From Methanocellales archaeon (lineage in GTDB: Archaea; Halobacteriota; JAWCLZ01), in the NCBI GenBank assembly GCA_038850285.1, contig JAWCMA010000001.1:27880-91879 (forward strand): a stretch of DNA of 64,000 bases. Reading direction: 5' to 3'. A program made the position numbers and the translations under genes. Position 1 is the stretch's first letter; every line of letters starts with the position of its first letter. Under the pieces are notes generated by a model. It was not told where the DNA came from and did not search any database. It saw only the letters and a list, made by a program, of their open reading frames with translations. Shown in pieces: positions 4,939 through 53,783 of this stretch.

Positions 4939-7683
4939 TTATTTCTTTGCGGCTAGCTTTACAACCTCAACCGTGCCATCGGGTTTCTTGGAAATACCAA
5001 GTCCAGCTGGTTTGAGGAGTGCTAGGAATTCTTTCATTGGAACTTGATCTCGATCATATCTAGCCTTTGCCTCCGCCAGTGGCACGATCTTTAGCTTGCC
5101 ATCGGAGATCTCAAGGGCAAGTCCCATTTTCTCCAACGATTCAACAATGCCTTTAGCTGGGAAGAATTTTTCAACAGGTGGAGGCACTTCTTTGGGTACA
5201 AGTCCAAGTCTCTTCTCCAAATATGGCCTCAATTTTTCATTCTCAGCTTTAATCCTCTCCACGCCGAGTTCCTTTATAACTCTATCCAGTTCCTTAATTG
5301 TATTAGCATAGACAGTGCTCATTGCAGCTGAGATCCACCGCCTCTGCATCCTCTCAGGGGTTAAGCCCTGCTTCACCAATTCTTCTTTAATCTTATCGAA
5401 CCTAGGCCCTGAGATCTTATTTCCTGATACATAGTGGCAGGTGCCAATTTCACATCCACCCATGAAGAAAGCTCCAGCTCCTCGCCTGAAGGCTTCATAG
5501 ATGAAGTCTCGGTCCACTCTTCCTGAGCACATTACTCTTATTACCCTTGCTGAAGTGGGCTGCTGAATTCGACTCACCCCTGCTAAGTCAGCTGCGCCAT
5601 AGGTACACCAATTGCAGATTATAGCAACTATAGTCTGCTCTGGATTGCGAGCAGTGGCTTCTCTTATTTGAGCCATGATTTGCGCGTCTGTGAAATGCAT
5701 TTGCTGCATTGCACTGCTAGGGCAATCGGCCACGCAGGTGCCGCAGCCATGGCATTGAGCTGGATTGATCTTCGCAAGCTTCTTCTCCCTACCTGGTACC
5801 TCTATCAGCGATATCGCTTTATATGCACATCTCTCCACGCACATACCGCAGCCTATGCAGAGTTTATCGTCCACAACTGCAACTATGGGATCGATCTTCC
5901 ATTTATCTTGAGACATAACTCTGGTTGCTCTAGATGCAGCGCCGTGTGCCTGCGACACGCTATAGGGAATATCTTTCAAGCCCTGGCAGCAGCCAGCTAA
6001 AAATATACCATCTGTGGCAAAGTCAATTGGCTTGAGTTTGGGGTGTGATTCTATGAAGAACCCGTGCTCGTCGGTTGGTACATTTAAGATCGCGCCGAGT
6101 TCACTTGAATCTGGATTGGGAACGCTTGCCTCTGCTAGAACAACCATTTCAACCTCGAGTTCCACAGGCTGATTTATGAAGGTATCAAATACCTTTATTA
6201 ATAGATTCTTATTTGGAAGTTCGATTATCTCAGAAGGCCTTCCGCGTACGAAGGTTATACCTTGATCGCGTGCTTTAATATAGAAGTCCTCGAAGCCCTT
6301 GAAGATGGTTCGCATATCCATATATACTATATAAATCTCAGCATCGGGCCAGTGATCTTTCCAGAGGTTCGCCAGTTTTAAGGTGAACATGCAGCAGAAG
6401 TTACTACAATACGGCTTGGCTATGCCCTTGGGATCCATTTCCCTGCTGCCAACGCAGGTTATGAATGCCACTTTCTTAGGTTCTTTTCCATCTGAAGCTC
6501 TAACCACGTGCCCCTCAAGCGGTCCAGAAGCACAAATCAATCGCTCGAGCTCAAGCGAGGTAATGACATTATCATACCTACCATAGCCATATTCTTTTTT
6601 CTGAGTGGCATCCCACATCGAATAGCCAGTGGCAACCACGATTGTGCCAACCTCGAGCTCAATGATTTCATCCTGCATGGTGAAGTCAATTGCCATGCGG
6701 TCTCCGCATGCTTCCACGCATTTGAAGCACTTGATGCAGTGCTTCAAGTCAATGGTATAGGTATTTGGAACAGCCTGCGGTAGAGGTATATATATTGCTT
6801 TTCTCGGGCCAAGGTTTACATCATATTCATTTGGCACTTCCACTGGGCAAGCTTTTGCACAATCGCCACATCCAGTGCATTTTTCCTTCCTCACATATTT
6901 GGCTTTTTTAAGAACTTCTACTTTGAAGTTACCTATGAAGCCGCTGACTTTTTTAACCTCAGAATAAGCCAGCAATTCAATGTTAGGGTGCCGCCCCACT
7001 TCAACCATTTTAGGTCCTTCTATGCAGATGGAGCAATCTAGGGTTGGGAAGGTTTTATCCAACTGAGCCATTCTGCCGCCAATTGATGGTTCCTTCTCAA
7101 CTAGGTATACTTTAAAGCCGTGGTCAGCGATATCAAGCGCTGCGTGTATACCTGCGACCCCTCCGCCTATTACCAGTGCTTTCTTGGTGATTGGCACGTA
7201 GAATGGCTCGAGTGGCTGGAGATATCTTGCCTTTGCAACTGCCATTCTAACGTAATCCTTCGCTTTCTCAGTTGCCTCCTCTTTATTAGCATAGTGAATC
7301 CAAGAGCAGAATTCTCTGACATTTGCCATTTCAAATAGAAATGGATTCAATCCTGCATCTTGACAGGTTTTTCTAAATGTTGGCTCATGCATCCTAGGGG
7401 AGCAAGCTGCTACTACAACGCGATTCAATTTATGCTCCTTAATTGCTTTCCTTATTTCAGCCTGCCCGACATCTGCACAAGTATATTTATTGGTTTGAAC
7501 CCAAACTACATCTGGTAGGGTTCTTGCATAAGCAGCAACTGCTTCCACATCGACTGTGCCAGCGATATTTGATCCGCAGTAGCAGGGGAATACGCCTATT
7601 CTAGGCTCAGTGATCTCTATGCCACCAGGTCCAATGCCAGCTACTTTTTCCTTTTCTTTAGCTTCAGCTTTAACCTCAGTCAC
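4939..7683 (-). CDS. hdrA: HdrA-like flavoprotein fused to an MvhD-like domain, with an extra C-terminal region of about 150 aa
   Basis: 914 aa. It contains the HdrA N-terminal 4-Cys domain (FPCYCGSNIAG..C..C), an FAD Rossmann fold (VIGGGVAGIHAA), an inserted ferredoxin (CTGCGDCAKACP..CIKCFKCVEACGD), a C-terminal 2×[4Fe-4S] ferredoxin (CIGCGMCVERC..CHGCGTCVADCP) and an MvhD-like segment (IVAIICNWCTYGAADLAGVS...VMCSGRVD...GGCEIGTCHY), followed by about 150 aa that I cannot assign. It overlaps the upstream polyferredoxin gene by 4 nt. Confidence 0.85.
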   Translation of the reverse strand: MTEVKAEAKEKEKVAGIGPGGIEITEPRIGVFPCYCGSNIAGTVDVEAVAAYARTLPDVVWVQTNKYTCADVGQAEIRKAIKEHKLNRVVVAACSPRMHEPTFRKTCQDAGLNPFLFEMANVREFCSWIHYANKEEATEKAKDYVRMAVAKARYLQPLEPFYVPITKKALVIGGGVAGIHAALDIADHGFKVYLVEKEPSIGGRMAQLDKTFPTLDCSICIEGPKMVEVGRHPNIELLAYSEVKKVSGFIGNFKVEVLKKAKYVRKEKCTGCGDCAKACPVEVPNEYDVNLGPRKAIYIPLPQAVPNTYTIDLKHCIKCFKCVEACGDRMAIDFTMQDEIIELEVGTIVVATGYSMWDATQKKEYGYGRYDNVITSLELERLICASGPLEGHVVRASDGKEPKKVAFITCVGSREMDPKGIAKPYCSNFCCMFTLKLANLWKDHWPDAEIYIVYMDMRTIFKGFEDFYIKARDQGITFVRGRPSEIIELPNKNLLIKVFDTFINQPVELEVEMVVLAEASVPNPDSSELGAILNVPTDEHGFFIESHPKLKPIDFATDGIFLAGCCQGLKDIPYSVSQAHGAASRATRVMSQDKWKIDPIVAVVDDKLCIGCGMCVERCAYKAISLIEVPGREKKLAKINPAQCHGCGTCVADCPSSAMQQMHFTDAQIMAQIREATARNPEQTIVAIICNWCTYGAADLAGVSRIQQPTSARVIRVMCSGRVDRDFIYEAFRRGAGAFFMGGCEIGTCHYVSGNKISGPRFDKIKEELVKQGLTPERMQRRWISAAMSTVYANTIKELDRVIKELGVERIKAENEKLRPYLEKRLGLVPKEVPPPVEKFFPAKGIVESLEKMGLALEISDGKLKIVPLAEAKARYDRDQVPMKEFLALLKPAGLGISKKPDGTVEVVKLAAKK

Positions 7684-8720
7684 TTACCACCACTACCCCT
7701 TATTTTTAATAATGTGTTAATCGTTCTATTATATCCTTCTGCTTGTAATTCCTTGGCATAAGCCCTAGTGCTAGTTAGATTGCCTAGAGCTCTAAACCAA
7801 GTGCCTGAATGCGCTTTTGTATGTCGAATTCTTTCCCTAGTTATTGTAATAGCGCCATTTGGGCATGCATTCTTACACGCGCCACATAATATGCAGTATT
7901 CACTTCGATAGACTAATGGTGAACCATGGAGTGCCCCGCAGGGACATGCATCTATGCAAACTGTGCAAACTTCAGGACACTTAGCTGTGTCTATGGTTAA
8001 GATGCCCTCGAAAGGAGTGGTAACAGCAAGTACTCCATTTGGACATACACCCTCGCACCAGCCACAGGTAACGCATTTATCTAGATCTACTTTAACCAAC
8101 TTTTCTCTTCGCTTCTCTCTATTGATAGCAATCGCACCCTCTGGGCATTTTTCAAGCGCTTTGAGGGTTTCATCGGTGAATTTATCATAGTTTATGTAAA
8201 CTCTATCCGTGATTTCAACGCCTGGAGCTTCGCATTTTCTGCATAAATTGCAGAGTTCATCGTTGATCTGGACATCTAAAATTTCAATTTCTCTCTCTCC
8301 ATCTTCATACTTCAAAGCTTCAAATTTGCATGTTTCTTGACAGAGAGTGCAAGTTGGATCGCATTTCTCTTGATTTACATATACCTCTCGAATTAACTTT
8401 GGAAAGTCATCCTGCAGCACAGGTGGAGATGGCTTACCGTCAATTCTGAACTCAATCGCGTGATATGGACAGACTTGCGAGCAAACTCCGCAGAAAGTGC
8501 ATTTATTTTCATCGATAACTGCCTTATTCTTCTTAATCAACTTGCCATCTTTGATCTCCGCGCCACTGATATTAATTGCCTCCTCAGGACAGGAGGTTTT
8601 GCATACCTCGCAGCCTTGACATTTAAGTAAATTATGAATTACCTCATGCAAGCGGAAATACATCTTTCGCTTAATTATTTGCTGCTCGTCTTTAACAAGC
8701 CTAATAGGTTTTCCTCTCAT
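7680..8720 (-). CDS. Polyferredoxin (multi-[4Fe-4S], MvhB/FwdF-like)
   Basis: 346 aa with about 7–8 CxxCxxCxxxCP-type motifs (CQGCEVCKTSCP, CTFCGVCSQVCP, CVTCGWCEGVCP, CILCGACKNACP and others). It is translationally coupled to hdrA-mvhD. Confidence 0.8.
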   Translation of the reverse strand: MRGKPIRLVKDEQQIIKRKMYFRLHEVIHNLLKCQGCEVCKTSCPEEAINISGAEIKDGKLIKKNKAVIDENKCTFCGVCSQVCPYHAIEFRIDGKPSPPVLQDDFPKLIREVYVNQEKCDPTCTLCQETCKFEALKYEDGEREIEILDVQINDELCNLCRKCEAPGVEITDRVYINYDKFTDETLKALEKCPEGAIAINREKRREKLVKVDLDKCVTCGWCEGVCPNGVLAVTTPFEGILTIDTAKCPEVCTVCIDACPCGALHGSPLVYRSEYCILCGACKNACPNGAITITRERIRHTKAHSGTWFRALGNLTSTRAYAKELQAEGYNRTINTLLKIRGSGGK

Positions 8721-8888
8721 GCAAACACCAGAATCTATTGATTAGCCATTGATCTTGATATACATCCATATAAATTAATTGATTTTTTTCAAATAGCAAG
8801 CCTTAATTAAACTATGAATAAAATCGATTCAAAAAGAAAATTGTATAAGCGTTGCGGTTAATTGATAAAAACTTGGGAGCGTTTATTG

Positions 8889-9947
8889 ATGACTGAAAAA
8901 AAGATACTCTATGCTGATTTGACTAAGAATAGCTTGAGTGTAAAAGTGGAGAAAATCGAGGCAATAGGCGGAGCTGCATTGGCATCGAGATTATTAAAGC
9001 AAGATTCATTGATATTTGCAACAGGAGTATTCTCAGGAACCCTTATACCTGCGGGAAGCGTTGTAGGTGTTTTCTCTCCAAATGGAGAGCATTACTTCCC
9101 AGGTAATTTTGGCACTCAAATGAGGCTAGCTGGTTTAGATGCCATTGTAATCAGCGGTAGAGCTGAGAGGCCAGTTGCACTTTGGATAGATGATGATGGC
9201 ATTGATATAGAGCGTGCTGATAAACTCTGGGGCCTAGATTGCTATGAAACAGTTGAGAGAATTTTAAAGGATGCAAATGACCCTACAATTGGAGTAGCAG
9301 TGATAGGCCCGGCTGGCGAGGAGCAGGTTAAATTTGCAAGCATTTACTGCGATGACCAGCTTGATATAAGTGGACTTGGCTATGCAATGGGCGCTAAACT
9401 TTTGAAAGCAGTTATTGTGAGGGGATCGAATGATGTTAAAGTAGCGCATGGAGATGATTTGATAAAGGCTATTTCAAAGAAAGAAGTGCCAAGTAAAATC
9501 AGAAAGGATTTAATTGCTAAAAAACTTCCCAAGAATAGCTCTTGCTTGCAGTGTAATATTGCATGTCGAGAGGTATTCAAGGCAAATGGATCGATAACAG
9601 CCATATTCCCAGAGGAAGCTGAAGCATTCAACGGGTACAAGGCTGAAGAAGTGATTGAAGCAATTGCTCTATGCAAGCGACTTGGACTTAATCCAATTTA
9701 CACTGGCGCTCTAGCTAGGGCAGTGAAGGCTGAGAAACTGAGTGAATTCATAAAGAGCCTTGCTGTTAAATCAGAAGCAGAAAAGGCGATAAAGGCAGTT
9801 AACATAAAAATAGAAAAACCATTGCCTGGAAAACTTGATAAATTATTTAATTCTCTAATGATATGCAAGCGCGCACCTTATGATGGAGACGAGCTTGCAA
9901 AGCTATACAAATTTGTGACTGGCGAAACGATGCCAAGGGAAGGGTGA
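8889..9947 (+). CDS. Truncated aldehyde:ferredoxin oxidoreductase-like protein: AOR domain 1 plus a CxxCxxxC motif, with the tungstopterin-binding domains missing (BamB-like position)
   Basis: The likely start is MTEKKILYADL at 8889; the ORF-track start at 8862 is a TTG. Residues 1-200 align with AOR domain 1 (AGLDAIVISGRAERPVALWI, IGPAGEEQVKFASI, GAKLLKAVIVRGS). The motif CLQCNIAC resembles the AOR [4Fe-4S] ligand motif. The protein is only about 350 aa, against about 600 aa for a full AOR. Confidence 0.65.
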   Translation: MTEKKILYADLTKNSLSVKVEKIEAIGGAALASRLLKQDSLIFATGVFSGTLIPAGSVVGVFSPNGEHYFPGNFGTQMRLAGLDAIVISGRAERPVALWIDDDGIDIERADKLWGLDCYETVERILKDANDPTIGVAVIGPAGEEQVKFASIYCDDQLDISGLGYAMGAKLLKAVIVRGSNDVKVAHGDDLIKAISKKEVPSKIRKDLIAKKLPKNSSCLQCNIACREVFKANGSITAIFPEEAEAFNGYKAEEVIEAIALCKRLGLNPIYTGALARAVKAEKLSEFIKSLAVKSEAEKAIKAVNIKIEKPLPGKLDKLFNSLMICKRAPYDGDELAKLYKFVTGETMPREG

Positions 9948-9952
9948 TAAAT

Positions 9953-10411
9953 ATGGGGACTAAATTTTTAGCTGCAGATCCAGCGCTTTGCATTGGTTGC
10001 CACACTTGCGAGCTGGTCTGCTCATATAAAAAAGAAAATGTTTTCAATCCCAAGAAAGCGCGAATTAAAGCAGTTAGCATACCTCCGCTTACAAGTGCTC
10101 AAGCGTGCAGACTTTGCAAACCAGCACCTTGCTTGATAAAATGCCCTAGAAGAGCAATTACTCAAGATGAGAAAACTCTGGTTATAAAAATAAATGAAGA
10201 TAAATGCGATGGCTGTGGTTGGTGCGTTGAAGCTTGTGAATTTGGAGCCATGTCCATGCATCTTGATAGAAAAAAGGCATTTGTCTGCGACCTATGCGAT
10301 GGCAAGCCAGCTTGCTTGGAATTCTGCCCAACTAAAGCAATAGATTTTGTTAGCGAGGAAGAACTAGCACGGAAGGTTCAATCAGCGTTCAGTATAGTAA
10401 AGGGTGTTTAA
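9953..10411 (+). CDS. Four-cluster [4Fe-4S] ferredoxin (BamC-like position)
   Basis: Motifs CIGCHTCELVC, CRLCKPAPCLIKCP, CDGCGWCVEACEF and CDLCDGKPACLEFCP. The start is an ATG at 9953, overlapping the upstream stop. Confidence 0.75.
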   Translation: MGTKFLAADPALCIGCHTCELVCSYKKENVFNPKKARIKAVSIPPLTSAQACRLCKPAPCLIKCPRRAITQDEKTLVIKINEDKCDGCGWCVEACEFGAMSMHLDRKKAFVCDLCDGKPACLEFCPTKAIDFVSEEELARKVQSAFSIVKGV

Positions 10412-10413
10412 CA

Positions 10414-11556
10414 TTGATCTCTAGGGAATTTATTAAAAAGATCTCAGCTATCCCAGGCGGCGAGCAAGCAAAGATGTGCTATAAATGTGCTGAGTGTACT
10501 TCAGTTTGCCCAGTTGCAAAGGAAACCAACTATGAGTTCAAGCCCCATGTCTTGATGGGGATGATCAACTACGGCTTAAAAGACTTAATACTCCCGTATC
10601 TCTGGTACTGCATAACTTGTGGTAAATGTACAGTGCTATGCCCTCAAGGTATTAATATTCAAGAAGTGGTTAGAAGCGCTAGGACTCAAGCAGTCCAGGT
10701 ACCATATGCCCATAAGGGTATCTTTCACACCATGCATAGAATAATGGCTAGAGGAAAGGCTCCTGATAGAACAAAATGGTTTGAAGAAGCTGGGATTGAT
10801 TTAAATAAAAAAGGAGACAAGCTTTTTTTCGTGAGCTGCATTCCACTGTATGAGCTGTTCTTCACGGATTTGAACTTCGATGCAAAGGAAATGGTGAGAA
10901 GCAGTGTGAAGATCTTGGAAAAATTGAATATAAACTATCAAATATTTGCTGATGAACGCTGCTGCGGTCACGATGTTTTTTGGGCTGGTGACTTTGAAAC
11001 ATTCAAGGAATTTGCAAATGTAAATGCAAAGCTATTCAAGGAACGTGGAGTGAAGGAGATAATTACATTTTGCCCAGAGTGCTATCGAACTTTTCTTTTA
11101 GATTATCCAAGGGTAATAAAGGGCTTTGACATAAAAGTTAAACATATCACTGAAGTAATAGCAGAAGGCATAAATAGCGGTAAAATCGAAATCGCTAGGT
11201 CTAACGAAATACTCACTTATCAAGATCCCTGCCGCCTCGGCAGGCATTGTGGTATTTACGATTCTCCAAGGATTATTATGGAGAAGCTTGGTAAATTTGT
11301 TGAGATGAAGAATACCAAGGAAAAAGCAGACTGCTGTGGGATAAGTGCTTGGCTTAGCTGCGAGCCTGAGACCAAGATATATAGGGAGCAGCGGTTGAGG
11401 GAAGCGAGGGAAACAGGTGCGCAAACATTGGTTACTGCTTGCCCCCACTGCTTGATTCATTTCTCTTGTTCAATCTGCGAGGACCAAAAGATACCAGTGC
11501 AGCATAACATCAAAGTTAAAGATATAGTTACACTTGTAGGGAGGCAGATGAAATGA
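10414..11556 (+). CDS. HdrD-like Fe-S protein: two [4Fe-4S] motifs plus two CCG domains (BamD-like position)
   Basis: 380 aa. The N-terminus has CAECTSVCP and CITCGKCTVLCP. The CCG signatures are ERCCGHDVFW...FCPECY and DPCRLGRHCG...DCCGISAW...CPHC. The TTG start is uncertain. Confidence 0.75.
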   Translation: MISREFIKKISAIPGGEQAKMCYKCAECTSVCPVAKETNYEFKPHVLMGMINYGLKDLILPYLWYCITCGKCTVLCPQGINIQEVVRSARTQAVQVPYAHKGIFHTMHRIMARGKAPDRTKWFEEAGIDLNKKGDKLFFVSCIPLYELFFTDLNFDAKEMVRSSVKILEKLNINYQIFADERCCGHDVFWAGDFETFKEFANVNAKLFKERGVKEIITFCPECYRTFLLDYPRVIKGFDIKVKHITEVIAEGINSGKIEIARSNEILTYQDPCRLGRHCGIYDSPRIIMEKLGKFVEMKNTKEKADCCGISAWLSCEPETKIYREQRLREARETGAQTLVTACPHCLIHFSCSICEDQKIPVQHNIKVKDIVTLVGRQMK

Positions 11557-14516
11557 AGGGATCGGTATTAGTTATAGGTGGAGGCATAGCTGGAATGGTT
11601 GCCTCTTTAGACCTAGCTGACATTGGCTATAAAGTTTATTTAGTCGAGAAACTCCCGAGCATAGGCGGGAGGATGGCTCAGCTTGATAAAACCATGCCCA
11701 CGCTAGATTGCTCAATGTGCATTGAAGCACCTAGAATGGTGGAGGTAGCGAGGCATCCAAATATAGAGTTGCTGACCTATGCTGAGGTGAAGCGAGTTAA
11801 AGGTAAACTTGGGGATTTCAAAGTCGAGGTAATTAAGAAGTCTCGATATGTTGATAAAACCAAATGCACTGGATGTGGCGACTGCGCTCAAGCCTGTCCA
11901 GTGGAAGTGCCAAATGAATACGATGCTAATACTAAATCGCGAAAGGCAATATATATTCCATTTCCCCAAGCTGTTCCAAATACATATACCATTGATATGA
12001 AGCACTGCATCAAATGCTTCAAATGCGTTGAAGCATGTGGAGATAGAATGGCAATTGATTTTACAATGCAGGATGAGATAGTGGAGTTAAACGTTGGTGC
12101 TATAATCGTAGCCACTGGATTTGATATGTACGATCCCTCGGTGCTGCGCAATTATGGCTATGGGGTCTTGGAAAATGTATTAACAGGACTGGAATATGAG
12201 CGCCTATTAAATGCTGCAGGTCCAACTGAGGGGGTTATCTTAAGGCAAGATGGCAAGCATCCTAAGCATATTGCATTCATTCAATGCGTTGGAAGTAGGG
12301 ATAGCAAGCACAAGAAATACTGCTCGCGCTTCTGCTGCGTTTACGCTGTGAAGGAAGCAATTTTAACTAAGGAACACGATCCTGAGGCTAAATGCACAAT
12401 ATTTTACATGGACATGAGAGCTCATGGAAAAGGACAGGAAGAGTTCTACAGGCGTGCAAAAGAGGAATTTGGCATTGAGTTTATCAGGAGCAAGCCCGCG
12501 TATATAGAGCAAATTGGGGATAAACTGCGAATTACTTACGAGGACACTAGTTCAAGTGAAGTTAGAACAATGGAAGTTGACATGGTTGTGTTGGCTAACG
12601 CAATAGTACCAAGCGTACCAACCTCGCTTAACATCGAAGTAGATGCAGATGGCTTTATCTCAGAGAAACTCGGAGATCCCTCGACCACGAATATCCCAGG
12701 GATATATGCAGCTGGAGTTTCACAAGCGCCAAGAGATATATCTGATTCAGTTGCAATGGGCAGCGCAGCAGCTGGTAAGGTATCTGCGGATTTGAGAGAA
12801 GCCAGAGGTACTGAGGTAGTGAAAAAAATACTACCGCCTGAGAGAGATGTAACTCGTGAACCACTTAGGATTGGCGTTTTCCTATGTCACTGCGGTATAA
12901 ACATCGCTGGCGTCGTTGATATGAAAGCACTTGAGGAATACTCTAGAACTCTACCTAATGTTGTATTTGTCCAACGTAATCTCTACACCTGCTCTGAAGA
13001 GGGCAATCGCCAGATTAGGGATGCCATTAAAGAATATAATTTGAATCGCGTTGTAGTAGCAGCTTGCACTCCGCGAACTCATGAAGCACTCTTTAGGGAA
13101 ACATGCATGCAAGCTGGATTGAATCCCTATTTACTTGAATTCGCAAGCACTAGAGAAATGTGTTCTTGGGTGCATATGCGCCAGCCTAAGGAGGCAACTG
13201 AGAAGGCTAAGGATATAGTGAGAATGGCAGTCGCTAGAGCAGCTTTGCTTGAGCCTCAGAAGCCAGGTGTAATTCCAGTCACGCCAAAGGTAGTGATAAT
13301 CGGCGGTGGCATAGCTGGCATGCAAGCAGCCTTGGGATGCGCGAGAAATGGTTTTCAAACCTATCTCATTGAGAAAAGCGCTGAACTCGGTGGAATGCTG
13401 GCTAAGCTTCGCTCTATGGTTCCCACTTATCTTGATCCAAGGGAAATTGTGAGGGAGAAAATTGCAGCAGTGAGGCAAAATCCATTGATAAAAGTTTATA
13501 CCAATACCGAGGTCAAGAATATCTCTGGCTTCATAGGAAACTTCATAGTGGAACTCTCAAATGGCGAAAAAATTGAAGCTGGGGCTATAGTGGTTGCCAC
13601 AGGTGGAAAGGAGTGGAAGCCTGATGTATATGACTATGGCAAAAATCCAAATGTTATGACCCAGCTTGAGTTTGAAGAAGCTCTTTTAAAGGGAGAAATA
13701 AAGCCAGGTGAGAGAATTGTTATGATACAATGCGTGGGATCTAGAGATGAAAAAAGGCCTTATTGCTCGAGGATTTGCTGCGGCGTTGCAGTTAAAAATG
13801 CTCTAGAGCTCAAAAAGCGATATCCTGAGAACCCAGTTTATATATTATATAATGATATGCGAACCCACGCTAAGGGAACGGAGGAACTATATCTAGAAGC
13901 TCGGGAGAAGGGAGTGGAATTTATTAGATTTGAACTTGAGAATAGACCAACTGTTAGAGGCAATAAGGTAACGGTCTTTGATAGTTTCCTGCAAACCGAG
14001 TTTGATATACCAGCGGATAAGATAGTGCTATCCAGCGCTATAGTGCCTGATGAAAATGCACCTCAGCTTGCGAAGATGCTTAAAGTGCCTCTTGATGTTA
14101 ATGGCTTCTTCCTTGAGGCTCACCTCAAACTCAGACCTGTTGACTTCGCCACTGATGGAATATTCGTAGCTGGTGTAGCACAGAGTCCAAAGGAGTATTA
14201 TGATTCAATTTCACAGGCAGATGCAGTGGTGGCTAGAGTGGCTAGATTACTAGCTAAGCCTGAGTTTGAAACAGAAGCTATTACTTCTATAGCTATGGAG
14301 GAACTCTGCATTGGCTGTGCTCGCTGCGTTGCATGCTGCCCATATACAGCTATTACCATGGTGATGAAGAACGGGAGATATGTTTCAAGTGTTAATCAAG
14401 CCCTCTGCAAAGGCTGCGGTACTTGCGTGGCTGAATGTCCAACTGGTGCTATGAAGGCAAGGCACTTCACCACTGAGCAGATTACAAAAATGATAGATGC
14501 AGCATTGGAGGAGTGA
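11553..14516 (+). CDS. Tandem (double-FAD-domain) HdrA-like flavoprotein (BamE-like position)
   Basis: 987 aa. Order: FAD domain 1 (VIGGGIAGMVAS) with an inserted ferredoxin, then an internal HdrA N-terminal-type 4-Cys domain (VFLCHCGINIAG), then FAD domain 2 (IIGGGIAGMQAA), then a C-terminal 2×[4Fe-4S] (CIGCARCVACCP..CKGCGTCVAECP). Its start is an ATGA overlap with the upstream gene. Confidence 0.85.
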   Translation: MKGSVLVIGGGIAGMVASLDLADIGYKVYLVEKLPSIGGRMAQLDKTMPTLDCSMCIEAPRMVEVARHPNIELLTYAEVKRVKGKLGDFKVEVIKKSRYVDKTKCTGCGDCAQACPVEVPNEYDANTKSRKAIYIPFPQAVPNTYTIDMKHCIKCFKCVEACGDRMAIDFTMQDEIVELNVGAIIVATGFDMYDPSVLRNYGYGVLENVLTGLEYERLLNAAGPTEGVILRQDGKHPKHIAFIQCVGSRDSKHKKYCSRFCCVYAVKEAILTKEHDPEAKCTIFYMDMRAHGKGQEEFYRRAKEEFGIEFIRSKPAYIEQIGDKLRITYEDTSSSEVRTMEVDMVVLANAIVPSVPTSLNIEVDADGFISEKLGDPSTTNIPGIYAAGVSQAPRDISDSVAMGSAAAGKVSADLREARGTEVVKKILPPERDVTREPLRIGVFLCHCGINIAGVVDMKALEEYSRTLPNVVFVQRNLYTCSEEGNRQIRDAIKEYNLNRVVVAACTPRTHEALFRETCMQAGLNPYLLEFASTREMCSWVHMRQPKEATEKAKDIVRMAVARAALLEPQKPGVIPVTPKVVIIGGGIAGMQAALGCARNGFQTYLIEKSAELGGMLAKLRSMVPTYLDPREIVREKIAAVRQNPLIKVYTNTEVKNISGFIGNFIVELSNGEKIEAGAIVVATGGKEWKPDVYDYGKNPNVMTQLEFEEALLKGEIKPGERIVMIQCVGSRDEKRPYCSRICCGVAVKNALELKKRYPENPVYILYNDMRTHAKGTEELYLEAREKGVEFIRFELENRPTVRGNKVTVFDSFLQTEFDIPADKIVLSSAIVPDENAPQLAKMLKVPLDVNGFFLEAHLKLRPVDFATDGIFVAGVAQSPKEYYDSISQADAVVARVARLLAKPEFETEAITSIAMEELCIGCARCVACCPYTAITMVMKNGRYVSSVNQALCKGCGTCVAECPTGAMKARHFTTEQITKMIDAALEE

Positions 14517-14519
14517 GAA

Positions 14520-14939
14520 ATGAGGGAGCCGAAGATAATTGGATTGCTGTGTAACTGGTGTTCCTATGCAGGTGCGGATCTTGCTGGGGTAAGTAGATTT
14601 CAATATCCCCCTAATATACGCGTGATCAGAGTAATGTGCACGGGTAGGGTTGATCCCTATTTCGTGATCCATGCATTTGAGAGGGGCGCTGATGGCGTTC
14701 TAGTAAGTGGCTGCCACATTGGCGATTGTCACTATTTAAAGGGCAATGAATTCATGGTTCAGCGCATGGAAAACCTCGCAAAGGCATTGCCTATGATAGG
14801 TATAAATCCAAAGCGCTTCATGTATACCTTCGTCTCAGCTGCAGAGGGCAAGCGCTTCTCTGAAGTTGTAACTCAATTCGTAAAGCAAGTGAAGGAAGCC
14901 ATGCTTGAGGATGAAAAAGCTAGGGCAGCGGGTTCATGA
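14520..14939 (+). CDS. mvhD: MvhD-like [2Fe-2S] protein (methyl-viologen-reducing hydrogenase delta subunit family; BamF-like position)
   Basis: 139 aa with the motif IIGLLCNWCSYAGADLAGVS..VIRVMCTGRVD..SGCHIGDCHY. Confidence 0.85.
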   Translation: MREPKIIGLLCNWCSYAGADLAGVSRFQYPPNIRVIRVMCTGRVDPYFVIHAFERGADGVLVSGCHIGDCHYLKGNEFMVQRMENLAKALPMIGINPKRFMYTFVSAAEGKRFSEVVTQFVKQVKEAMLEDEKARAAGS

Positions 14940-18635: not shown

Positions 18636-18983
18636 ATGGGCATCCATATTGTCGTTGAATTTCTGGGCGTTGACCCGGAAAAACTCTCTAGAGTTGAAAA
18701 TGTAAAGCGAATTTTAGAAAGAGTATTGATTAATTCTAAGTTGAATGTGGTTGCAAATGTTTTTCATCAATTCTCGCCACATGGGGTTTCTGGAGTTTTT
18801 CTACTTCGCGAATCTCACCTCAGCATTCATACTTGGCCAGAGTATGAATATGCAGCCATAGATATCTTCACATGCGGTAGAGAGGAAGATGCACTTGAAG
18901 CACTATACTTACTTATAAAAGAGTTCCAACCCAAGGAAGTTAAAAAGGAAATAATCAGGAGGGAAGTTTCATGGAAAAAATAA
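18636..18983 (+). CDS. speH: S-adenosylmethionine decarboxylase proenzyme (pyruvoyl-dependent)
   Basis: 115 aa with the processing-site motif ESHLSIHTWPE. Confidence 0.85.
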   Translation: MGIHIVVEFLGVDPEKLSRVENVKRILERVLINSKLNVVANVFHQFSPHGVSGVFLLRESHLSIHTWPEYEYAAIDIFTCGREEDALEALYLLIKEFQPKEVKKEIIRREVSWKK

Positions 18984-20047
18984 GAGAATATATCTTAAAT
19001 GAATTAGCCACTTCTAATAAAAGCATCTGGGAACTCCTAGATAGCGCTTACTCGCCCTTAAAAGATTTCTTGAAGACTTTGAAAAATTTAATTGAAAATG
19101 AGGTGATTGCAAGTAATGGTAAAACTTTTTATTTAACTGAGAAAGGCAAACAAGAAGCTACATTAATTGCATTAAATCCATTTAAAAGTAATCTCTGCCA
19201 GTATTGCAATGGGAAGAGAATTGCCATTGAGGGGAAATTTAAGGAGATATTAAGTGAGTTTAAAGAAATAGTTAAAACCCGGCCCCTTGTGGATTTAAAT
19301 TTCTTCCAAGGCTATGCGATTGAGGAAGATGTAGTGAGAAGAGTAGCTTTAATGCATCACTATGGCGATTTACATCGCAAGGATCTCATTTTAATTGGCG
19401 ATGATGATCTATTAAGCATAGCTCTCTCTCTAACTCAACTTCCATCTAGAGTCGTTGTTTTAGATATAGATGAAAAACTAGGGGAATTCATAGCACGAGT
19501 AAGCAGGGAACATCGCTTTGATATTGAATTTAGAAAATACAATGTAGCTGATCCATTACCAAAGGATCTAGTGGGAAACTTCGATGTTTTCTCCTCAGAG
19601 CCACTTGAAACCCTAACAGGGCTTAAAGCATTTGTTGCAAGAGGCGTGAGTTGCTTAAGGGAAAATGGCGCGGGCTACTTCGGCTTAACCTTTCTCGAGG
19701 CATCTTTTAAAAAATGGCTAGCAATACAGAAAACCATAAGCAAGATGAACTGCGTGATGACAGATGTAATCCGGGGATTCACAGCTTATCCAATGAACTA
19801 TGAAAACTTGGATTATGAATCATTTGTAGAAAAACTTAAGGTTCCAATTGAAAGAAACCCTGGTATTAATTGGTATAAATCTGCATTAATAAGAGTTGAA
19901 GCACTAGGCAAGCCAAAGCTAGTCATACCACCGAATAAAAAATTGCGTGTGAAACTTGTTGATCCAATGGAAGACCTCACATATCCAAATAAAAAATGCG
20001 CCGGTCGGGATTCGAACCCGAGTTTGGGGCTTGGCAAGCCCCAGTGA
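18971..20047 (+). CDS. bpsA: Branched-chain polyamine synthase (N4-bis(aminopropyl)spermidine synthase, DUF43 family)
   Basis: 358 aa. The assignment rests on the DUF43/BpsA-like fold and its position immediately downstream of speH. The last ~51 nt of the CDS are antisense to tRNA-Gly. Confidence 0.65.
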   Translation: MEKIREYILNELATSNKSIWELLDSAYSPLKDFLKTLKNLIENEVIASNGKTFYLTEKGKQEATLIALNPFKSNLCQYCNGKRIAIEGKFKEILSEFKEIVKTRPLVDLNFFQGYAIEEDVVRRVALMHHYGDLHRKDLILIGDDDLLSIALSLTQLPSRVVVLDIDEKLGEFIARVSREHRFDIEFRKYNVADPLPKDLVGNFDVFSSEPLETLTGLKAFVARGVSCLRENGAGYFGLTFLEASFKKWLAIQKTISKMNCVMTDVIRGFTAYPMNYENLDYESFVEKLKVPIERNPGINWYKSALIRVEALGKPKLVIPPNKKLRVKLVDPMEDLTYPNKKCAGRDSNPSLGLGKPQ

Positions 20048-20068
20048 TAACCACTACACTACCGGCGC
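19997..20068 (-). tRNA. tRNA-Gly (GCC)
   Basis: The reverse complement GCGCCGGTAGTGTAGTGGTTATCACTGGGGCTTGCCAAGCCCCAAACTCGGGTTCGAATCCCGACCGGCGCA folds as a cloverleaf with anticodon loop TTGCCAA. CCA is not encoded. Confidence 0.9.
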
Positions 20069-20116
20069 ATGTATATTTTTAGCTGGTGAGGTATAAAAAT
20101 TTGATCTTCAATTGAA

Positions 20117-20189
20117 TGCCCTGACCCGGACTCGAACCGGGGACAGCCAGATCTTCAGTCTGGCGCTCTCCCAACTGAGCTATCAGGGC
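20117..20189 (-). tRNA. tRNA-Phe (GAA)
   Basis: The reverse complement GCCCTGATAGCTCAGTTGGGAGAGCGCCAGACTGAAGATCTGGCTGTCCCCGGTTCGAGTCCGGGTCAGGGCA has anticodon loop CTGAAGA. Confidence 0.9.
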
Positions 20190-20232
20190 ATTTTGAGTTT
20201 AGTTTGTAAATTTTAATTAATAAAGGTTTTGA

Positions 20233-30157: not shown

Positions 30158-31321
30158 ATGTCAAGTGCATATGTTGCTATTCTCCTCCTTGGAATCGTTA
30201 GCTTGATGGGAGATGTTGTTTACGAAGGCTCTCGCGGGCTAGTACCTGATTACTTCAATTTCCTAGGTGCAACTGCATTCATAATTGGATTGTCTGGGGG
30301 AATTGGAGATTTCTTAGGCTATGCTTTAAGACTGGTAAGTGGGTTTTTAGCAGATACCACGCGGGCTTACTGGTTCTTCATATTTCTAGGCTATGGATTG
30401 ATCATCGCGATCCCGCTTTTGGGATTTATATATAGTCTAGAGCTGGCTATAATTCTAGTTATTCTTGAGAGAATTGGAAAAGCCCTGCGCTCTCCATCCC
30501 GAGACACAGTGCTATCCATTTTGAGTAGAGATCTTGGAGCTGGAAAGGCCTTTGGAATTCATGAATTTTTAGATCAAATAGGCGCAGTTGCAGGCCCACT
30601 TATAGTTGCCTTTGTAATGTTTCATAGCTCCAATAACTACCAACAGACTTTTAGCTTGCTAATGCTGCCTTTCTTAGTCCTCATAATAGTGCTTTTTTAC
30701 ACCTATAGCAAGATAGGTTCTAAGATAGCTGAACCCACGAGTATTAGTAGTAGCAGAGTGCTCCAGAAGCCTTTTTATATTTATACATTCGCTGTCATGT
30801 TAAATACAGTTGGACTCATTCCAGCTGCATTGATTTTATATAGAGCATCTGTCATTCTTCAACCTGAGCATAAGCAGTGGATGGTTCCTTTGATTTACCT
30901 ACTCATACAGGGAATAGATGCAATCGCTGCTTTAATCGCTGGATATGCCTTTGATAAATTCGGAATTAAAATTCTAGCGCTGTCCTTCGCACTTTCAATC
31001 TTTCCACCTATATTTACACTCAGCTCTCAAGGCTTCGAAGCACTGATAATTGCCTCGATTTTCTTCGGAAGTATTCTTGGAATGCAGGAGTCTATCTATC
31101 GCGCTGCGGTATCGAAGCTAGCACCACTTGCCTCCAGAGGCACAGCCTATGGGGTATTCAACGCTGCCTATGGAATTTCTATTCTAATGAGCGGCGCGAT
31201 TTATGGCTTGATGATGGATTACAAAGCCACGCTTGCCTCCTTACTCTTATTCATATTTACAATGCAAACAGCTGCAATAGCTTCTTTAATGCTTGTTGAT
31301 GAAAAAAGAGCTATGGAATAG
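30158..31321 (+). CDS. MFS transporter
   Basis: About 12 predicted TM segments and an MFS-like loop motif (RDLGAGKA). Confidence 0.7.
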   Translation: MSSAYVAILLLGIVSLMGDVVYEGSRGLVPDYFNFLGATAFIIGLSGGIGDFLGYALRLVSGFLADTTRAYWFFIFLGYGLIIAIPLLGFIYSLELAIILVILERIGKALRSPSRDTVLSILSRDLGAGKAFGIHEFLDQIGAVAGPLIVAFVMFHSSNNYQQTFSLLMLPFLVLIIVLFYTYSKIGSKIAEPTSISSSRVLQKPFYIYTFAVMLNTVGLIPAALILYRASVILQPEHKQWMVPLIYLLIQGIDAIAALIAGYAFDKFGIKILALSFALSIFPPIFTLSSQGFEALIIASIFFGSILGMQESIYRAAVSKLAPLASRGTAYGVFNAAYGISILMSGAIYGLMMDYKATLASLLLFIFTMQTAAIASLMLVDEKRAME

Positions 31322-33134
31322 TTAATAGAAGAGCTAAGAGGGACAGTGAAATGGCTGCGATTATCACTGAGGCAGCAAAAGCCCCTCCTATTGCTATTAT
31401 TGTATTGGCTGCAGTGGCAAGTTGAGCAGTTTTATGAGCGCCGAATACATATACATCAACCATCTCGCTCCTGAGCCCTGCTTCAACTTCCTCTAGGTCT
31501 TCAAGTGCTTCAATTGCGAGTTGCTTAACTGCGTTTATCAGCCTATCGTGATCCATATATGCACCGATGAAAATTGCACCTGATTTTATATTAACAGTAT
31601 GGGTATCAGTGGTCATAACTTCAGCTTCATCTATACCAAGTGCTTTTACCTCTTCCACGATTTTATCCCTTAAGCCTTTTACCATGTTATTGCCATCAAT
31701 TAAGATATACGCAGTTCTCTGGCCAAGTACTTCCACTATCGCGAGTAAGATACCTAGCTCTCCCATGCCTTCTTCTCTGGTGAAAATAGGAGGCTGCTTT
31801 GCTATTCCAATTCTAATTTTGCCAAGTTCTTCCCTAGAGAGAACTTCCCAAGCTCGAGTGACTGCTTTAATTAAATCATAAGAGGCTTTACTTCCAGGTA
31901 GTATGATCCTTGCATATGGCTCTGTGCAGTTATGTGCATCTATAATTGCAGCATCCTTCGCTCCAGCCATTTTCACACTTGCTAGTGCTGCAAGTCCAAC
32001 TCCAAATTCGATATCTTCAGTGGACTTGGGAGATAGGGTGGAGATAAATAGAGCTGAATCGCTGAATCTCTGAGCTAGAATCTTCACATCCCCCTCAGCA
32101 ATGCGAATAGATCTAGTGGCAAGGTTTGAGTATTCCATTTTAGATAGAGCTTTTTTCACCACCTCTATGATCTTAACTACCTCGCTCTTTGAAACCAAGT
32201 TGAAATCGTGATAGGCTGTGCCGTGGGGCACGAATACTGCGAAGTCAAAGCTCTTTGAGATCAACTGAGGAAGTGCTCCTCCACCTATATCCTTCATAGG
32301 CCCTGGGTGTACCATTGGTATAACGAATATAGCTTTAATTCTCCCCTCACTGCATCTGAAGCTCAATATACTCACAGGTATATTCGCTTCTTCTCCAAGT
32401 TTTTGAAAGATCCTCTCGAGCTCTTCACTCCCTTCATTGGTTTTTGAAATAAAGCATCTTATGAAGTCAAGCCCGCTTATTCCAAATAACTTCCGAAAAG
32501 GCCTATCCATGAACTTTGCATATAAAAAAGCCGCTAGGGCGAAAATTATGCAGTATAGAAGGAGGAGTAGAAGTGACTCAGCGCTGGGATAATAAAGCCA
32601 GAGCAGAGGTATGGAAATCAAGGTTTGAAATGAGGCTGGGAATATCACTCTAGCTATCTCTTTGCTTGATATCGTGATTAAAATTAACATGCGAAATGCA
32701 AATATTATTCCTATCCCCATTATAAAAATAATTAAAACTTCTCCTCTATGTAGAGTTTTAGCCGCAATTGCACCGATTCCTAGTATTAATCCTAGGATCA
32801 CTCCACTTGCGAGTGATAGGAATGCAGAGCGATTCAAGGTAAAGCTTTTATCGAATCTTAGAGCTAGTGGTGTCAAAAAAGTTGAAAGAACCGCGGGTAG
32901 AGCTATGAGCAAGAGTCCAGCTGCTAAATCTTTGGTTAAACTGCCAAAGTTAAAAACCCCTGCGCCTGTAATTGCCGCAAGGAAAATTAAAAAAGCAATG
33001 CTATGCTTCCAATTGGGCGCGGTGAATGCATATTTTGCGAGTGCTGCAGCTCTTTCATCGATTTCTCTTTTCACAGCCATTATTAAACTAACTCCGCTGT
33101 TTTTATTTCTAGAGTACCTCGATTGCCATACCAC
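31311..33134 (-). CDS. Large membrane protein: N-terminal polytopic domain plus a cytoplasmic domain, possibly DUF2070-like
   Basis: 607 aa. Hydrophobic segments at both the N- and C-terminus flank a soluble middle region; no enzymatic motif was recognised. Confidence 0.4.
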   Translation of the reverse strand: MVWQSRYSRNKNSGVSLIMAVKREIDERAAALAKYAFTAPNWKHSIAFLIFLAAITGAGVFNFGSLTKDLAAGLLLIALPAVLSTFLTPLALRFDKSFTLNRSAFLSLASGVILGLILGIGAIAAKTLHRGEVLIIFIMGIGIIFAFRMLILITISSKEIARVIFPASFQTLISIPLLWLYYPSAESLLLLLLYCIIFALAAFLYAKFMDRPFRKLFGISGLDFIRCFISKTNEGSEELERIFQKLGEEANIPVSILSFRCSEGRIKAIFVIPMVHPGPMKDIGGGALPQLISKSFDFAVFVPHGTAYHDFNLVSKSEVVKIIEVVKKALSKMEYSNLATRSIRIAEGDVKILAQRFSDSALFISTLSPKSTEDIEFGVGLAALASVKMAGAKDAAIIDAHNCTEPYARIILPGSKASYDLIKAVTRAWEVLSREELGKIRIGIAKQPPIFTREEGMGELGILLAIVEVLGQRTAYILIDGNNMVKGLRDKIVEEVKALGIDEAEVMTTDTHTVNIKSGAIFIGAYMDHDRLINAVKQLAIEALEDLEEVEAGLRSEMVDVYVFGAHKTAQLATAANTIIAIGGAFAASVIIAAISLSLLALLLTIP

Positions 33135-52160: not shown

Positions 52161-53783
52161 CTATAGCTTTTTAACTACCCTCTCTATAACTTCACTTGGG
52201 CTGATTGCTTCAAGTGTTCTAGCTGTTATATCCTCTAGCATGACCTCAATTGCCAATTTAAGGGCTTGCTCATCCACATATAAAATTCGATGTGCATTTG
52301 TCTCTCTACTTCTAGCTGAGAAATAAAAGGGAAGCGTCAGGGCAGAGGCAAGCTGAAGGCATTTATATATAGCGCGTGGAGAAGCGTGCACTAATTGATC
52401 TTCTTCCACGAATTCCTTTACGAAGATTTTAAGGCTCAAGGTAACTCTCTTGATTTGATCCTCTAGGAACTGTATCTTAGCTGGCTTGTATTTCCACATC
52501 CCAGTGTTTATGGCATAGATCAAGGTTACGTGGTCTCTAATTAGCTTTGGAGTTATCTCTTCATATCTACCTACACCTAAAGCGTGTCTCTCAATTGACT
52601 CCACTATAGAGAGGAATCTATCCTTGGTCATGCGGTGCAAGCGGCAGAAGCAGCGGTCTTCAATTGCACGGAAATTTGGATCAGGCACGGTTAATCTATA
52701 GCCCCTTCTCTCTACTTTTACATTGTAATTTGCATTCAAGAAGGAGGTGAAAACATATGGTCCAATTGTTTCATGCGCTGATTCATATTTCAATGGCTTT
52801 TGCTCCATCGCGAGTTTGAGTCTCTCCACCATTCCACGTTCATGGAAGAACCACTCATTGAACTCCGGGACTAAGAAGACCATTTTCTTGCCTTCGTAGT
52901 ACTGCCCCATTTGGAGAAACATATATGGAGTTATGCCCCCGCAGTATCTATATCTCCCAGGTATGCCATGTGGCTCGAGCTGGAGTTTTTCATTGCCCAT
53001 CACAAAATCTATACTGGAATAAGTTTTTCCAGTTCCAATATCCCCGAAGAAAGCAAGGTGAAAGCCTGTACTTGTGAGGCGCTCGCCATTTGGCTTGAGT
53101 ACTTCCACATCTGCAATTCCAAATAACTGGCTCCATGAGAGGAGTACGTCTATAGCTGCCACCCCACCATATTCCTCGCAGTATCTATAAATCGAGGTCA
53201 AGTCAATTTGCTTCGCGAATTCAATAACTTTCTCTTCATCAATTTCCTTGAGATAATTCTTCAAGCACGAGTCCATTTTTTTGACCAATATCTGCTCGCT
53301 GGGCTTGGTCTCTTCTTTTATAGTGGTCTTGGTTTTTCTTCTTATGTACTCCATGAGGTGCTTTGCATTTGGCACTATGTATCGAGCGAAGTGATGTTTA
53401 TAGCTCTCCACCGGGCGGATTTGAATTTGATAGGATTCTTCTTTTTCATGGAGAGCAATGAAGAAGTAATGCTCATAGGTATGCAGCAAGCTTGAAATTG
53501 CATCTTTAATTAACTTTTCATCCGCATAAGTTTTGTCAGCTTCAATCACAATTCCATCAGGTGCTATTTCTATTACATCTCGAATTATCTCTCTCCCAAT
53601 TGCCATTCTAGCATTTCTCACTAGTTCTTCCCATTCTTCTCTACCGAAGAGGAAGGTGCCAGCTTCATCGTTTATGCTACGAGTCGCTAGTTCCTCTGCA
53701 GTAAAAATGCCTATGCTATTGAGATCTTTCATTCGCTTTCTACCTATTCCAGAGATTTCAAGCAGCTCCATTTCGAGGATCAC
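52161..53783 (-). CDS. Uncharacterised protein: an N-terminal helix-hairpin-helix motif plus a central P-loop NTPase domain
   Basis: 540 aa. The N-terminus ELLEISGIGRKRMKDLNSIGIFTAEELA is HhH and RadA-N-like. The Walker A FFGDIGTGKTYS sits at about residue 250. The gene lies co-directionally downstream of the DNA ligase. Confidence 0.5.
   Translation of the reverse strand: MILEMELLEISGIGRKRMKDLNSIGIFTAEELATRSINDEAGTFLFGREEWEELVRNARMAIGREIIRDVIEIAPDGIVIEADKTYADEKLIKDAISSLLHTYEHYFFIALHEKEESYQIQIRPVESYKHHFARYIVPNAKHLMEYIRRKTKTTIKEETKPSEQILVKKMDSCLKNYLKEIDEEKVIEFAKQIDLTSIYRYCEEYGGVAAIDVLLSWSQLFGIADVEVLKPNGERLTSTGFHLAFFGDIGTGKTYSSIDFVMGNEKLQLEPHGIPGRYRYCGGITPYMFLQMGQYYEGKKMVFLVPEFNEWFFHERGMVERLKLAMEQKPLKYESAHETIGPYVFTSFLNANYNVKVERRGYRLTVPDPNFRAIEDRCFCRLHRMTKDRFLSIVESIERHALGVGRYEEITPKLIRDHVTLIYAINTGMWKYKPAKIQFLEDQIKRVTLSLKIFVKEFVEEDQLVHASPRAIYKCLQLASALTLPFYFSARSRETNAHRILYVDEQALKLAIEVMLEDITARTLEAISPSEVIERVVKKL

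Follow-up and report, generated by a model that had tools for sequence, protein, structure and literature searches.

The window, that is, the whole stretch of 64,000 nucleotides analysed here (contig JAWCMA010000001.1 of a Methanocellales archaeon), carries between positions 8889 and 14939 five genes of the + strand that overlap or are spaced by a few bases, as seen in the list of its open reading frames (ORFs). They code for a short member of the aldehyde oxidoreductase (AOR) family, hereafter mini-AOR, a four-cluster ferredoxin, an HdrD-like CCG protein, a fused HdrA with two flavin adenine dinucleotide (FAD) domains and an MvhD-type adaptor (Table 1). This gene content, and its correspondence in order and domain composition to BamB-C-D-E-F of class II benzoyl-CoA reductase (BCRII), had been recognised in a preliminary description of the DNA and are borne out by the ORF, Pfam and NCBIfam assignments. 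We propose, with a probability of roughly 0.55, that the five products form an HdrA-type flavin-based bifurcating complex on the BamBCDEF plan, in which the AOR subunit is now a cofactor-less relic that would terminate a low-potential arm while the HdrD-like subunit would receive the high-potential electron. With its tungsten-cofactor site lost, the mini-AOR most likely serves as a wire for electrons or as a scaffold rather than as an enzyme.

Profile comparison of the product of ORF 8889..9947 with AORs gives a match to Pfam AFOR_N over residues 5-179 (E 7e-39), so that this part is AOR-domain-1-like, as had been suggested. AFOR_C is found only as a short piece (residues 202-277, profile positions 52-137 of 385, E 2.6e-7). 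A profile built from the orthologs and compared by HMMER with the Pyrococcus furiosus AOR (PfAOR; 1aor) also matches in two pieces: domain 1 aligns directly and residues 207-279 align with PfAOR 276-355, which places C219, C222 and C226 of the CLQCNIAC motif on the PfAOR cluster ligands C288, C291 and C295. The fourth ligand is C326 (NSLMICKR), aligned by MAFFT with the Cys of the DSLxxCxF motif of 13 full-length AORs (PfAOR C494). All four cluster Cys are invariant across the 18 aligned sequences, and also across two mini-AOR clades that are 33% identical (see below). The preliminary description had reduced the protein to AOR domain 1 plus a Cys motif; both elements are there, but remnants of domains 2 and 3, the fourth Cys included, are retained as well.

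Relative to full-length AORs about 240 residues are missing in at least eight blocks (12, 6, 45, 7, 21, 34, 33 and 81 aa), those of 12 and 6 aa lying in domain-1 loops and that of 81 aa being C-terminal. In the alignments, R76 and R182 of PfAOR, which we take to be phosphate contacts, are replaced by V58 and L158. The M91-G95 loop that carries Asn93 is deleted, E313 is replaced by A244, and the Asp of both DxxGL(C/D) motifs is substituted (D338 by K263 and the Asp of the D489 motif by N321), while the segments with Tyr427 and His448 fall in deleted blocks. In PfAOR the Asn93 carbonyl binds the bridging Mg2+, and Glu313, Tyr427 and His448 are second-shell catalytic residues (PMC12096430, PMC13328260, where the roles of Asn93/Ala183 and of Glu313/His448/Tyr427 are described). 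The claim that the tungstopterin site was lost is upheld by these substituted and deleted binding elements in both the PfAOR and the MAFFT alignments. The predicted structure of the mini-AOR is confident and compact, with low values of the predicted local distance difference test (pLDDT) at the deletion-junction segments; domain 1 and the surroundings of the cluster ligands are its most conserved parts, the junction linkers its least conserved. As judged from sequence, the mini-AOR is a pruned core of a whole AOR, with the AOR fold and a complete four-Cys [4Fe-4S] site and with its tungstopterin site gone. The second clade described below shares this fold core and cluster site.

The short gene is not peculiar to one assembly. 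A search of 5.8 billion proteins retrieved five clusters of mini-AOR at the 90% identity level, all of 352 aa, at 71-100% identity and found in independent assemblies; these assemblies stem from at least five samples and agree on the length of 352 aa, and three GTDB species representatives with the mini-AOR are labelled Methanocellales archaeon. The ratio of non-synonymous to synonymous substitution rates (dN/dS; Nei-Gojobori method) is about 0.15 for the mini-AOR, as measured with the two orthologs whose dS is unsaturated, compared to 0.08-0.12 for the ferredoxin and 0.025-0.07 for the Hdr genes and the polyferredoxin encoded next to the operon. The mini-AOR is under purifying selection, though the most relaxed of the gene set. 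An exhaustive search of 1.84 billion cluster representatives with a hidden Markov model (HMM) identified only two true mini-AOR clusters, the present one and that of P0149 (378 aa, E 8e-39, end-to-end alignment), all other matches being full-length AORs or contig fragments. A relative of P0149 (P0298, 381 aa) is encoded on contigs of 59% GC in a seven-gene arrangement identical to that of the window. The order in this second clade is a divergent polyferredoxin and HdrA-MvhD pair, then mini-AOR, a ferredoxin of 136 aa, an HdrD-like protein of 396 aa, a fused HdrA of 985-989 aa and MvhD; between the clades the mini-AOR is 33% identical and the fused HdrA 56%. In related genomes with the same cluster the AOR gene is short too (352 aa in all orthologs, 378-381 aa in the second clade), which together with its dN/dS agrees with the earlier view of a short, intact gene and shows it to be conserved. 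A frameshifted or split full-length AOR was considered and rejected: tblastn with 14 AORs over the six frames of the window matched only 8889-9821, and no second AOR-like sequence was found in any of them.

A full-length ancestor of the operon was searched for and not found. The closest full-length AORs (P0006, P0009, P0150) belong to ordinary WorS-WorL pairs that lack Hdr genes. A metagenome scan with the mini-AOR alignment, used as a negative control, returned general AORs only, at 43% identity or less, and HdrA or MvhD occurs within 8 kb in none of 80 such ordinary AOR loci. A possible full-length relative of the AOR-Hdr association is a locus (L026 6469-11803) where a full-length AOR of 626 aa is followed, in the same L-then-S order, by a WorS ferredoxin 48% identical to that of the window; the flanking genes there code for an FAD pyridine-nucleotide-disulfide oxidoreductase and, convergently, for HdrB-like (CCG) and HdrC-like proteins. 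There is also a second family of shortened AORs (P0242 and P0223, 417-429 aa; L016 3928-5217, L017 3831-5120). Its members have a CxxCxxxC motif plus a distal Cys, a ferredoxin of 111 aa precedes them, and Hdr genes are absent from their vicinity. Because this family is unrelated to the mini-AOR, shrinkage of AORs occurred more than once.

The best PDB matches of the ferredoxin encoded downstream are small subunits of W-AORs (9mqx_E, 5e-32; AorA, 8c0z_C, 2e-27; WOR5-S, 5e-22), its profile scores are 176 bits for AorA and 148 for 9mqx_E compared to 61 for BamC, and it is 37-48% identical to ferredoxins that adjoin full-length AORs. Searched against the PDB, the mini-AOR scores 135 bits with PfAOR and 89 bits with BamB, which is its fifth-best sequence match. 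The first two genes can consequently no longer be called specifically BamB-like and BamC-like, the ferredoxin also having four clusters and not the three of BamC. Since the PfAOR and WorS-type scores exceed those of BamB and BamC, mini-AOR and ferredoxin look like a degenerate WorL-WorS module and not like a descendant of BamBC. The mini-AOR always adjoins a WorS-type four-cluster ferredoxin.

The 987-aa protein matches the HdrA of M. wolfeii (5odc_A) with an E value of 5e-221, in three phmmer segments: residues 5-353 correspond to TrxR plus the inserted ferredoxin domain (Mw 146-497), residues 437-594 to the N-terminal domain (Mw 3-160), and residues 810-983 to the end of TrxR2 plus the C-terminal ferredoxin domain. 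In the motif map the DCSMC pair C53/C56 (Mw C194/C197) and the Cys of the inserted 2x[4Fe-4S] ferredoxin (105-162) are found in half 1 only, while half 2 has CHCGINI at 445 in the N-terminal domain, the second TrxR/FAD unit and the C-terminal 2x[4Fe-4S] Cys (919-962). The QCVGSRD...YCSxxCCxxxxK signature (HA4-type cluster and FAD-N5 lysine) is present in both halves, with K267 and K748. The defining elements of HdrA (CxnCxxxCC, N5 Lys, N-terminal domain, Cys197, inserted and C-terminal ferredoxin domains) are thus all present once or twice, and the layout matches that of BamE as described in bioRxiv 10.64898/2026.04.10.717634, in agreement with the assignment to a two-FAD HdrA of BamE type. 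HdrA fusions of about 1000 aa have a wide distribution (Bathyarchaeia, Asgard archaea, Thermoplasmata, Methanolliviera and Chloroflexi). Among the nearest outgroups of this one (51-56% identity) none has an AOR partner; they pair with GltD-like, FrhB/Fdh or HdrD modules. In the HdrD-like protein, two CxxCxxCxxxCP motifs are accompanied by two CCG motifs, both complete (C142/183/184/220/223 and C273/307/308/343/346), and its best NCBIfam match is TfrB (2e-39, residues 17-376). By analogy with BCRII it is predicted to be the catalytic, high-potential acceptor site. The fifth gene is an MvhD, as proposed, but not a BamF-like one, since it has the short canonical form without extension.

Table 1. 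Features of the seven-gene unit and its intergenic region (window positions).
Feature	Position	Strand	Characteristics
mini-AOR, 352 aa	8889..9947	+	pruned AOR/WOR large-subunit core; [4Fe-4S] site C219, C222, C226, C326; without tungstopterin-binding/catalytic elements
WorS-type ferredoxin, 152 aa	9953..10411	+	16 Cys in four CxxCxxCxxxC-type motifs; four predicted [4Fe-4S]; Pfam Fer4 families
HdrD-like subunit, 380 aa	10414..11556	+	HdrC-like 2x[4Fe-4S] N-terminus and two CCG; Pfam CCG E 3e-25, Fer4_8
Fused double HdrA, 987 aa	11553..14516	+	two FAD/TrxR-like halves; NCBIfam HdrA2/HdrA models
MvhD-type [2Fe-2S] adaptor, 139 aa, short canonical form	14520..14939	+	Pfam FlpD E 4.9e-52; NCBIfam VhuD 3.7e-31
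Divergent intergenic control region	8721..8888	.	strong conservation; TATA-like boxes on both strands; TTAATTGAT repeats
Polyferredoxin, 346 aa, FwdF/VhuB-like	7680..8720	-	Pfam Fer4 repeats; NCBIfam FwdF 8e-47; gene 1 of the divergent operon
HdrA2-type HdrA-MvhD fusion, 914 aa	4939..7683	-	NCBIfam NF040770; Pfam FlpD aa 685-807; gene 2 of the divergent operon

The mini-AOR initiates at ATG 8889 (ortholog N-termini MTEK/MIEK/MSEK) and terminates with TGA followed by an in-frame TAA. The clean stop reported in the preliminary description was confirmed, but its overlap with the next start was not: the ferredoxin most likely initiates at ATG 9953, 5 bases past the mini-AOR stop, instead of the overlapping GTG 9944. 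This ATG is preceded by the Shine-Dalgarno-like sequence GGGTGA and gives a protein of 152 aa, the length of the orthologs. The unit is also larger than the five genes first delimited, as the divergent polyferredoxin (7680-8720) and HdrA2-MvhD fusion (4939-7683) accompany the operon in every ortholog locus and in clade 2; the genes that flank the seven differ in one relative. The fusion scores 1067.1 bits with the HdrA2 model NF040770, slightly below its curated cutoff of 1100, with residues 28-810 covering model positions 1-775 of 777. Beyond the part covered by the model the fusion has a Lys/Glu-rich C-terminal tail of about 100 aa (4939-5250, - strand) in which two short repeats are found (…GLALEISDGKLKIVPL… and …GLGISKKPDGTVEVVKL…).

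The 168-bp intergenic region between the two operons has a mean column identity of 90% across six orthologs. It is 85-92% identical to the orthologs, compared to 75-85% for the whole 10-kb locus, and ranks among the top 0.3-2% of the 150-nt windows of that locus, exceeding nearly all its coding sequence in conservation. It features TTAATTGAT direct repeats at 8775 and 8858 and GTTTATTGAT at 8881, the latter overlapping the mini-AOR start codon; no Rfam match was obtained for 8721-8888. This conservation points to shared regulation of the two operons, and the region probably holds a regulator-binding site common to both. The clade-2 intergenic region (L018 9697-9720) has a GATTGATTTTTCAGATTGCAATAG element that resembles AATTGATTTTTTTCAAATAGCAAG of the window (8777-8800), although the spacing is off by 1-2 nt and the resemblance could be due to chance.

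The functional scheme that we favour is drawn on the BCRII of Geobacter metallireducens. In its cryo-electron microscopy structure, BamE is a fused-HdrA dimer whose TrxR1 FAD bifurcates: the high-potential electron passes by E4 to BamD, the low-potential electron passes by E3 and the inserted ferredoxin domain (E5/E6) to BamC, the BamB [4Fe-4S] cluster and the W cofactor, BamF (MvhD) joins the BamGHI input module, and four BamBC modules surround the BamDE core (bioRxiv 10.64898/2026.04.10.717634). Because BamBC serves in that enzyme as the low-potential output module of the fused HdrA, mini-AOR and ferredoxin are assigned, by analogy, to a five-cluster Fe-S low-potential arm without a terminal tungsten site. 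Like Bam(BC)2, the arm would dock on the fused HdrA at the ferredoxin domain inserted in half 1, and it would carry the low-potential electron from the bifurcating FAD; since there is no tungsten site, it would end at the mini-AOR cluster. In free-standing AORs, electron exchange with ferredoxin takes place at this [4Fe-4S] cluster. The mini-AOR cluster would hand its electrons to a dockable acceptor, the simplest candidates being a soluble ferredoxin or the co-regulated polyferredoxin/HdrA2 pair, and the protein may also help to hold the complex together. The high-potential electron would move by an E4-type cluster to the HdrD-like subunit, whose two intact CCG (non-cubane cluster) motifs are expected to reduce a disulfide. 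If the host is a methanogen, this would most plausibly be the heterodisulfide of coenzymes M and B (CoM-S-S-CoB), a substrate that is plausible from the TfrB/Hdr similarity and the Methanocellales label. The short MvhD would link an input module encoded outside the operon. The preliminary description had envisaged an uncharacterised bifurcating complex with a different substrate module. No description of the complex was indeed found in the searchable literature, but a separate module is not needed if the HdrD-like CCG protein provides the substrate site within the operon.

Several points weigh against this proposal. The subunit contacts, the cluster occupancy and the direction of electron flow are all taken from one preprint structure, and the docking geometry may differ, as mini-AOR and ferredoxin are not closest to BamB and BamC. 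In canonical HdrA, ferredoxin is reduced directly by the inserted ferredoxin domain, which gives no evident reason for an additional five-cluster arm. The choice of CoM-S-S-CoB depends only on the 'Methanocellales' label of the metagenome-assembled genomes (MAGs), and no mcr, mtr or fwd genes are present in the window according to its Pfam/NCBIfam annotation. The chemistry may furthermore differ across the family: in clade 2 the third cluster motif of the ferredoxin (L018 11161-11571) is devoid of its second Cys (CETIGWC), and the first CCG motif of the HdrD-like protein (L018 11580-12770) has Asp substituting for C220.

The main rival, although we consider it unlikely, is a purely structural role, with the mini-AOR being chiefly a pseudoenzyme whose AOR body is needed for assembly and whose cluster would be a structural element or a dead end in redox terms; the exit of low-potential electrons would then be directly at the inserted ferredoxin domain of HdrA or at the ferredoxin subunit. 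The mini-AOR being the least constrained of the seven genes (dN/dS of about 0.15; 33% identical between clades where the fused HdrA is 56% identical) speaks for such a role, as do the placement of four BamBC modules around the BamDE core in BCRII and the reduction of ferredoxin by canonical HdrA without an extra arm. However, the four cluster Cys and their surroundings are invariant or well conserved in both clades while the linkers drift, and the partner ferredoxin keeps 15-16 Cys. A more ambitious reading, which we hold to be doubtful, combines the two operons into a BCRII-like machine working 'beyond the redox window' in relatives of methanogens. Two hierarchically coupled HdrA modules (HdrA2-polyferredoxin and fused HdrA-HdrD-MvhD) would be placed under the one ultra-conserved promoter region, and the cofactor-less AOR cluster would serve as a very-low-potential exit to a new acceptor or substrate, with the mini-AOR as a repurposed active or docking site.

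Rather improbable is a mini-AOR that is still catalytic, its vacated pterin cavity exposing the [4Fe-4S] cluster or binding another cofactor for reduction of a new substrate. The arm of BCRII does supply a substrate site with extremely low-potential electrons, the pruned fold is conserved despite deep divergence, and there is an extra invariant Cys (C262) near the cluster motif. Yet C262 is common in ordinary AORs, no conserved set of polar or catalytic residues was found in the mini-AOR beyond the cluster ligands, the deletion-junction segments are the least conserved and have low pLDDT, and no substrate-related genes are found at the locus. Very improbable is the split AOR put forward in the preliminary description, in which a separate AFOR_C protein (domains 2 and 3) would contribute the tungstopterin site in trans. 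The DNA searched was the 64-kb window, where tblastn with the 14 AORs found nothing else in any frame. Moreover, the missing residues are scattered over at least eight internal deletions and do not form a single detachable block, the protein retains its own remnants of domains 2 and 3 with the fourth Cys, and the domain-1 cofactor contacts (R76, the Asn93 loop, R182) are themselves lost. A decaying fragment or an assembly or frameshift artefact, suggested by a length about 250 aa below that of any characterised AOR, is refuted by the 352 aa of independent assemblies, the purifying dN/dS (0.10-0.15), the 378-381 aa of clade 2 in the same operon, the lack of a downstream AOR-like frame and the confident, compact model. 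A genuine class II benzoyl-CoA reductase or another aromatic ring reductase, for which the BamB-C-D-E-F order and domain content would speak, is refuted on defining features, as the system lacks a W-pterin site, a counterpart of BamB Cys322 (PMC12096430), BamGHI and an extended BamF, and the host locus is one of archaeal housekeeping genes.

Elsewhere in the window, positions 53992-58197 form a DNA-repair cluster with an ATP-dependent DNA ligase (- strand), a LigD-polymerase-like gene (+) and NreA (+). Three large ORFs, 31311-33134 (-), 52161-53783 (-) and 60003-61310 (+), coding for 607, 540 and 435 aa, remained without an NCBIfam match at E 1e-10. An ORF of 358 aa (18971-20047) overlaps at its 3′ end with tRNA-Gly(GCC) of the opposite strand (19996-20069), which is adjoined by tRNA-Phe (20116-20190); the gene is probably shorter than this mechanical ORF.

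A 2025 review describes a W/Mo-bis-metallopterin cofactor in all AOR/WOR family members known (PMC12096430). The mini-AOR would contrast with this as a conserved AOR/WOR branch that shed the cofactor yet kept the Fe-S cluster and the polyferredoxin partner. The Bam-type architecture (AOR arm, HdrD-like protein, fused HdrA, MvhD) is not confined to aromatic-degrading bacteria, and a stripped-down version of it occurs in archaea labelled Methanocellales. A low-potential arm of HdrA type that would end in a bare cluster is a natural test case for how, and to whom, such arms deliver electrons, and the system may illustrate how redox enzymes turn into electron-transfer pseudoenzymes. In the searchable literature no account was found of a pterin-less AOR, of a truncated AOR in Hdr clusters, or of archaeal Hdr clusters with an AOR-family partner.

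The known system closest in plan is the Bam[(BC)2DEFGHI]2 complex, which has the same gene order of AOR-family subunit, polyferredoxin, HdrD-like protein, fused double HdrA and MvhD. The fused HdrA shares with BamE, compared by its description, a half 1 with a Cys pair (C59/C62 in BamE, C53/C56 here) and an inserted ferredoxin domain, and a half 2 with a C-terminal ferredoxin domain. The second FAD site differs, BamE having a Gln while Lys is found in both TrxR halves here (K267, K748). Compared to BamB, the mini-AOR has no W-bis-metallopterin site and about 300 residues fewer; the W ligand Cys322 has no equivalent, the family-wide C262 being the only Cys that follows C226 in this region. The ferredoxin is WorS-like with four clusters instead of the three of BamC, and the HdrD-like protein has both CCG motifs intact, unlike most BamD homologues, in which the distal cluster is disrupted. 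The clade-2 proteins, with their Cys loss in the ferredoxin and C220 to Asp change in the HdrD-like subunit, are reminiscent of the three-cluster BamC and of the modified distal cluster of BamD. BamF is extended and contains selenocysteine (Sec), while the MvhD here (139 aa) consists of FlpD only, without winged-helix extension or Sec, and no BamGHI (HydBC/NuoEFG-like) genes are present at this locus or at the orthologous ones.

From two-subunit or oligomeric W-AORs (Aromatoleum AorAB, 8c0z; P. furiosus WOR5, 6x1o; the bifurcating WOR, 9mqx) the present pair differs by the absence of pterin-binding domains and catalytic residues. AorAB/WOR-type AORs also commonly have the order S then L, which is L then S here, and the pair is embedded in an Hdr operon. 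The genes described here share with the HdrABC-MvhAGD and Fdh/Elp-Hdr-Fmd supercomplexes of methanogens the HdrA cofactor motifs, the MvhD adaptor and the CCG chemistry of HdrB/C type predicted from them, together with polyferredoxin wires that would take low-potential electrons to a partner. They differ in that HdrA is a fused pseudo-heterodimer and an HdrD-like protein combines HdrB and HdrC, in that no hydrogenase or formate dehydrogenase is encoded at the locus, and in that the wire would be an AOR relic plus WorS and not FmdF/MvhB.

The Hdr survey of anaerobic methanotrophic archaea (ANME) makes no mention of an AOR-family partner (zero matches for 'aldehyde' in PMC9012536). In the HdrA fusions that it describes, of at least about 1000 aa, the N-terminal domain and Cys197 are lost in a complementary manner (Chadwick et al. 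2022, PMC9012536). The complementary pseudo-heterodimer fusion, HdrD-like proteins and MvhD occur together there as they do here, but the domain order is reversed in the window, with the Cys197-bearing half first. The divergent pair (4939-8720) is like the Methanosarcina-type HdrA2 with its adjacent polyferredoxin, matching NF040770 end to end beside a polyferredoxin gene, and is set apart from it by a score of 1067 bits against the cutoff of 1100, by the extra tail of about 100 aa and by its head-to-head arrangement with the mini-AOR operon.

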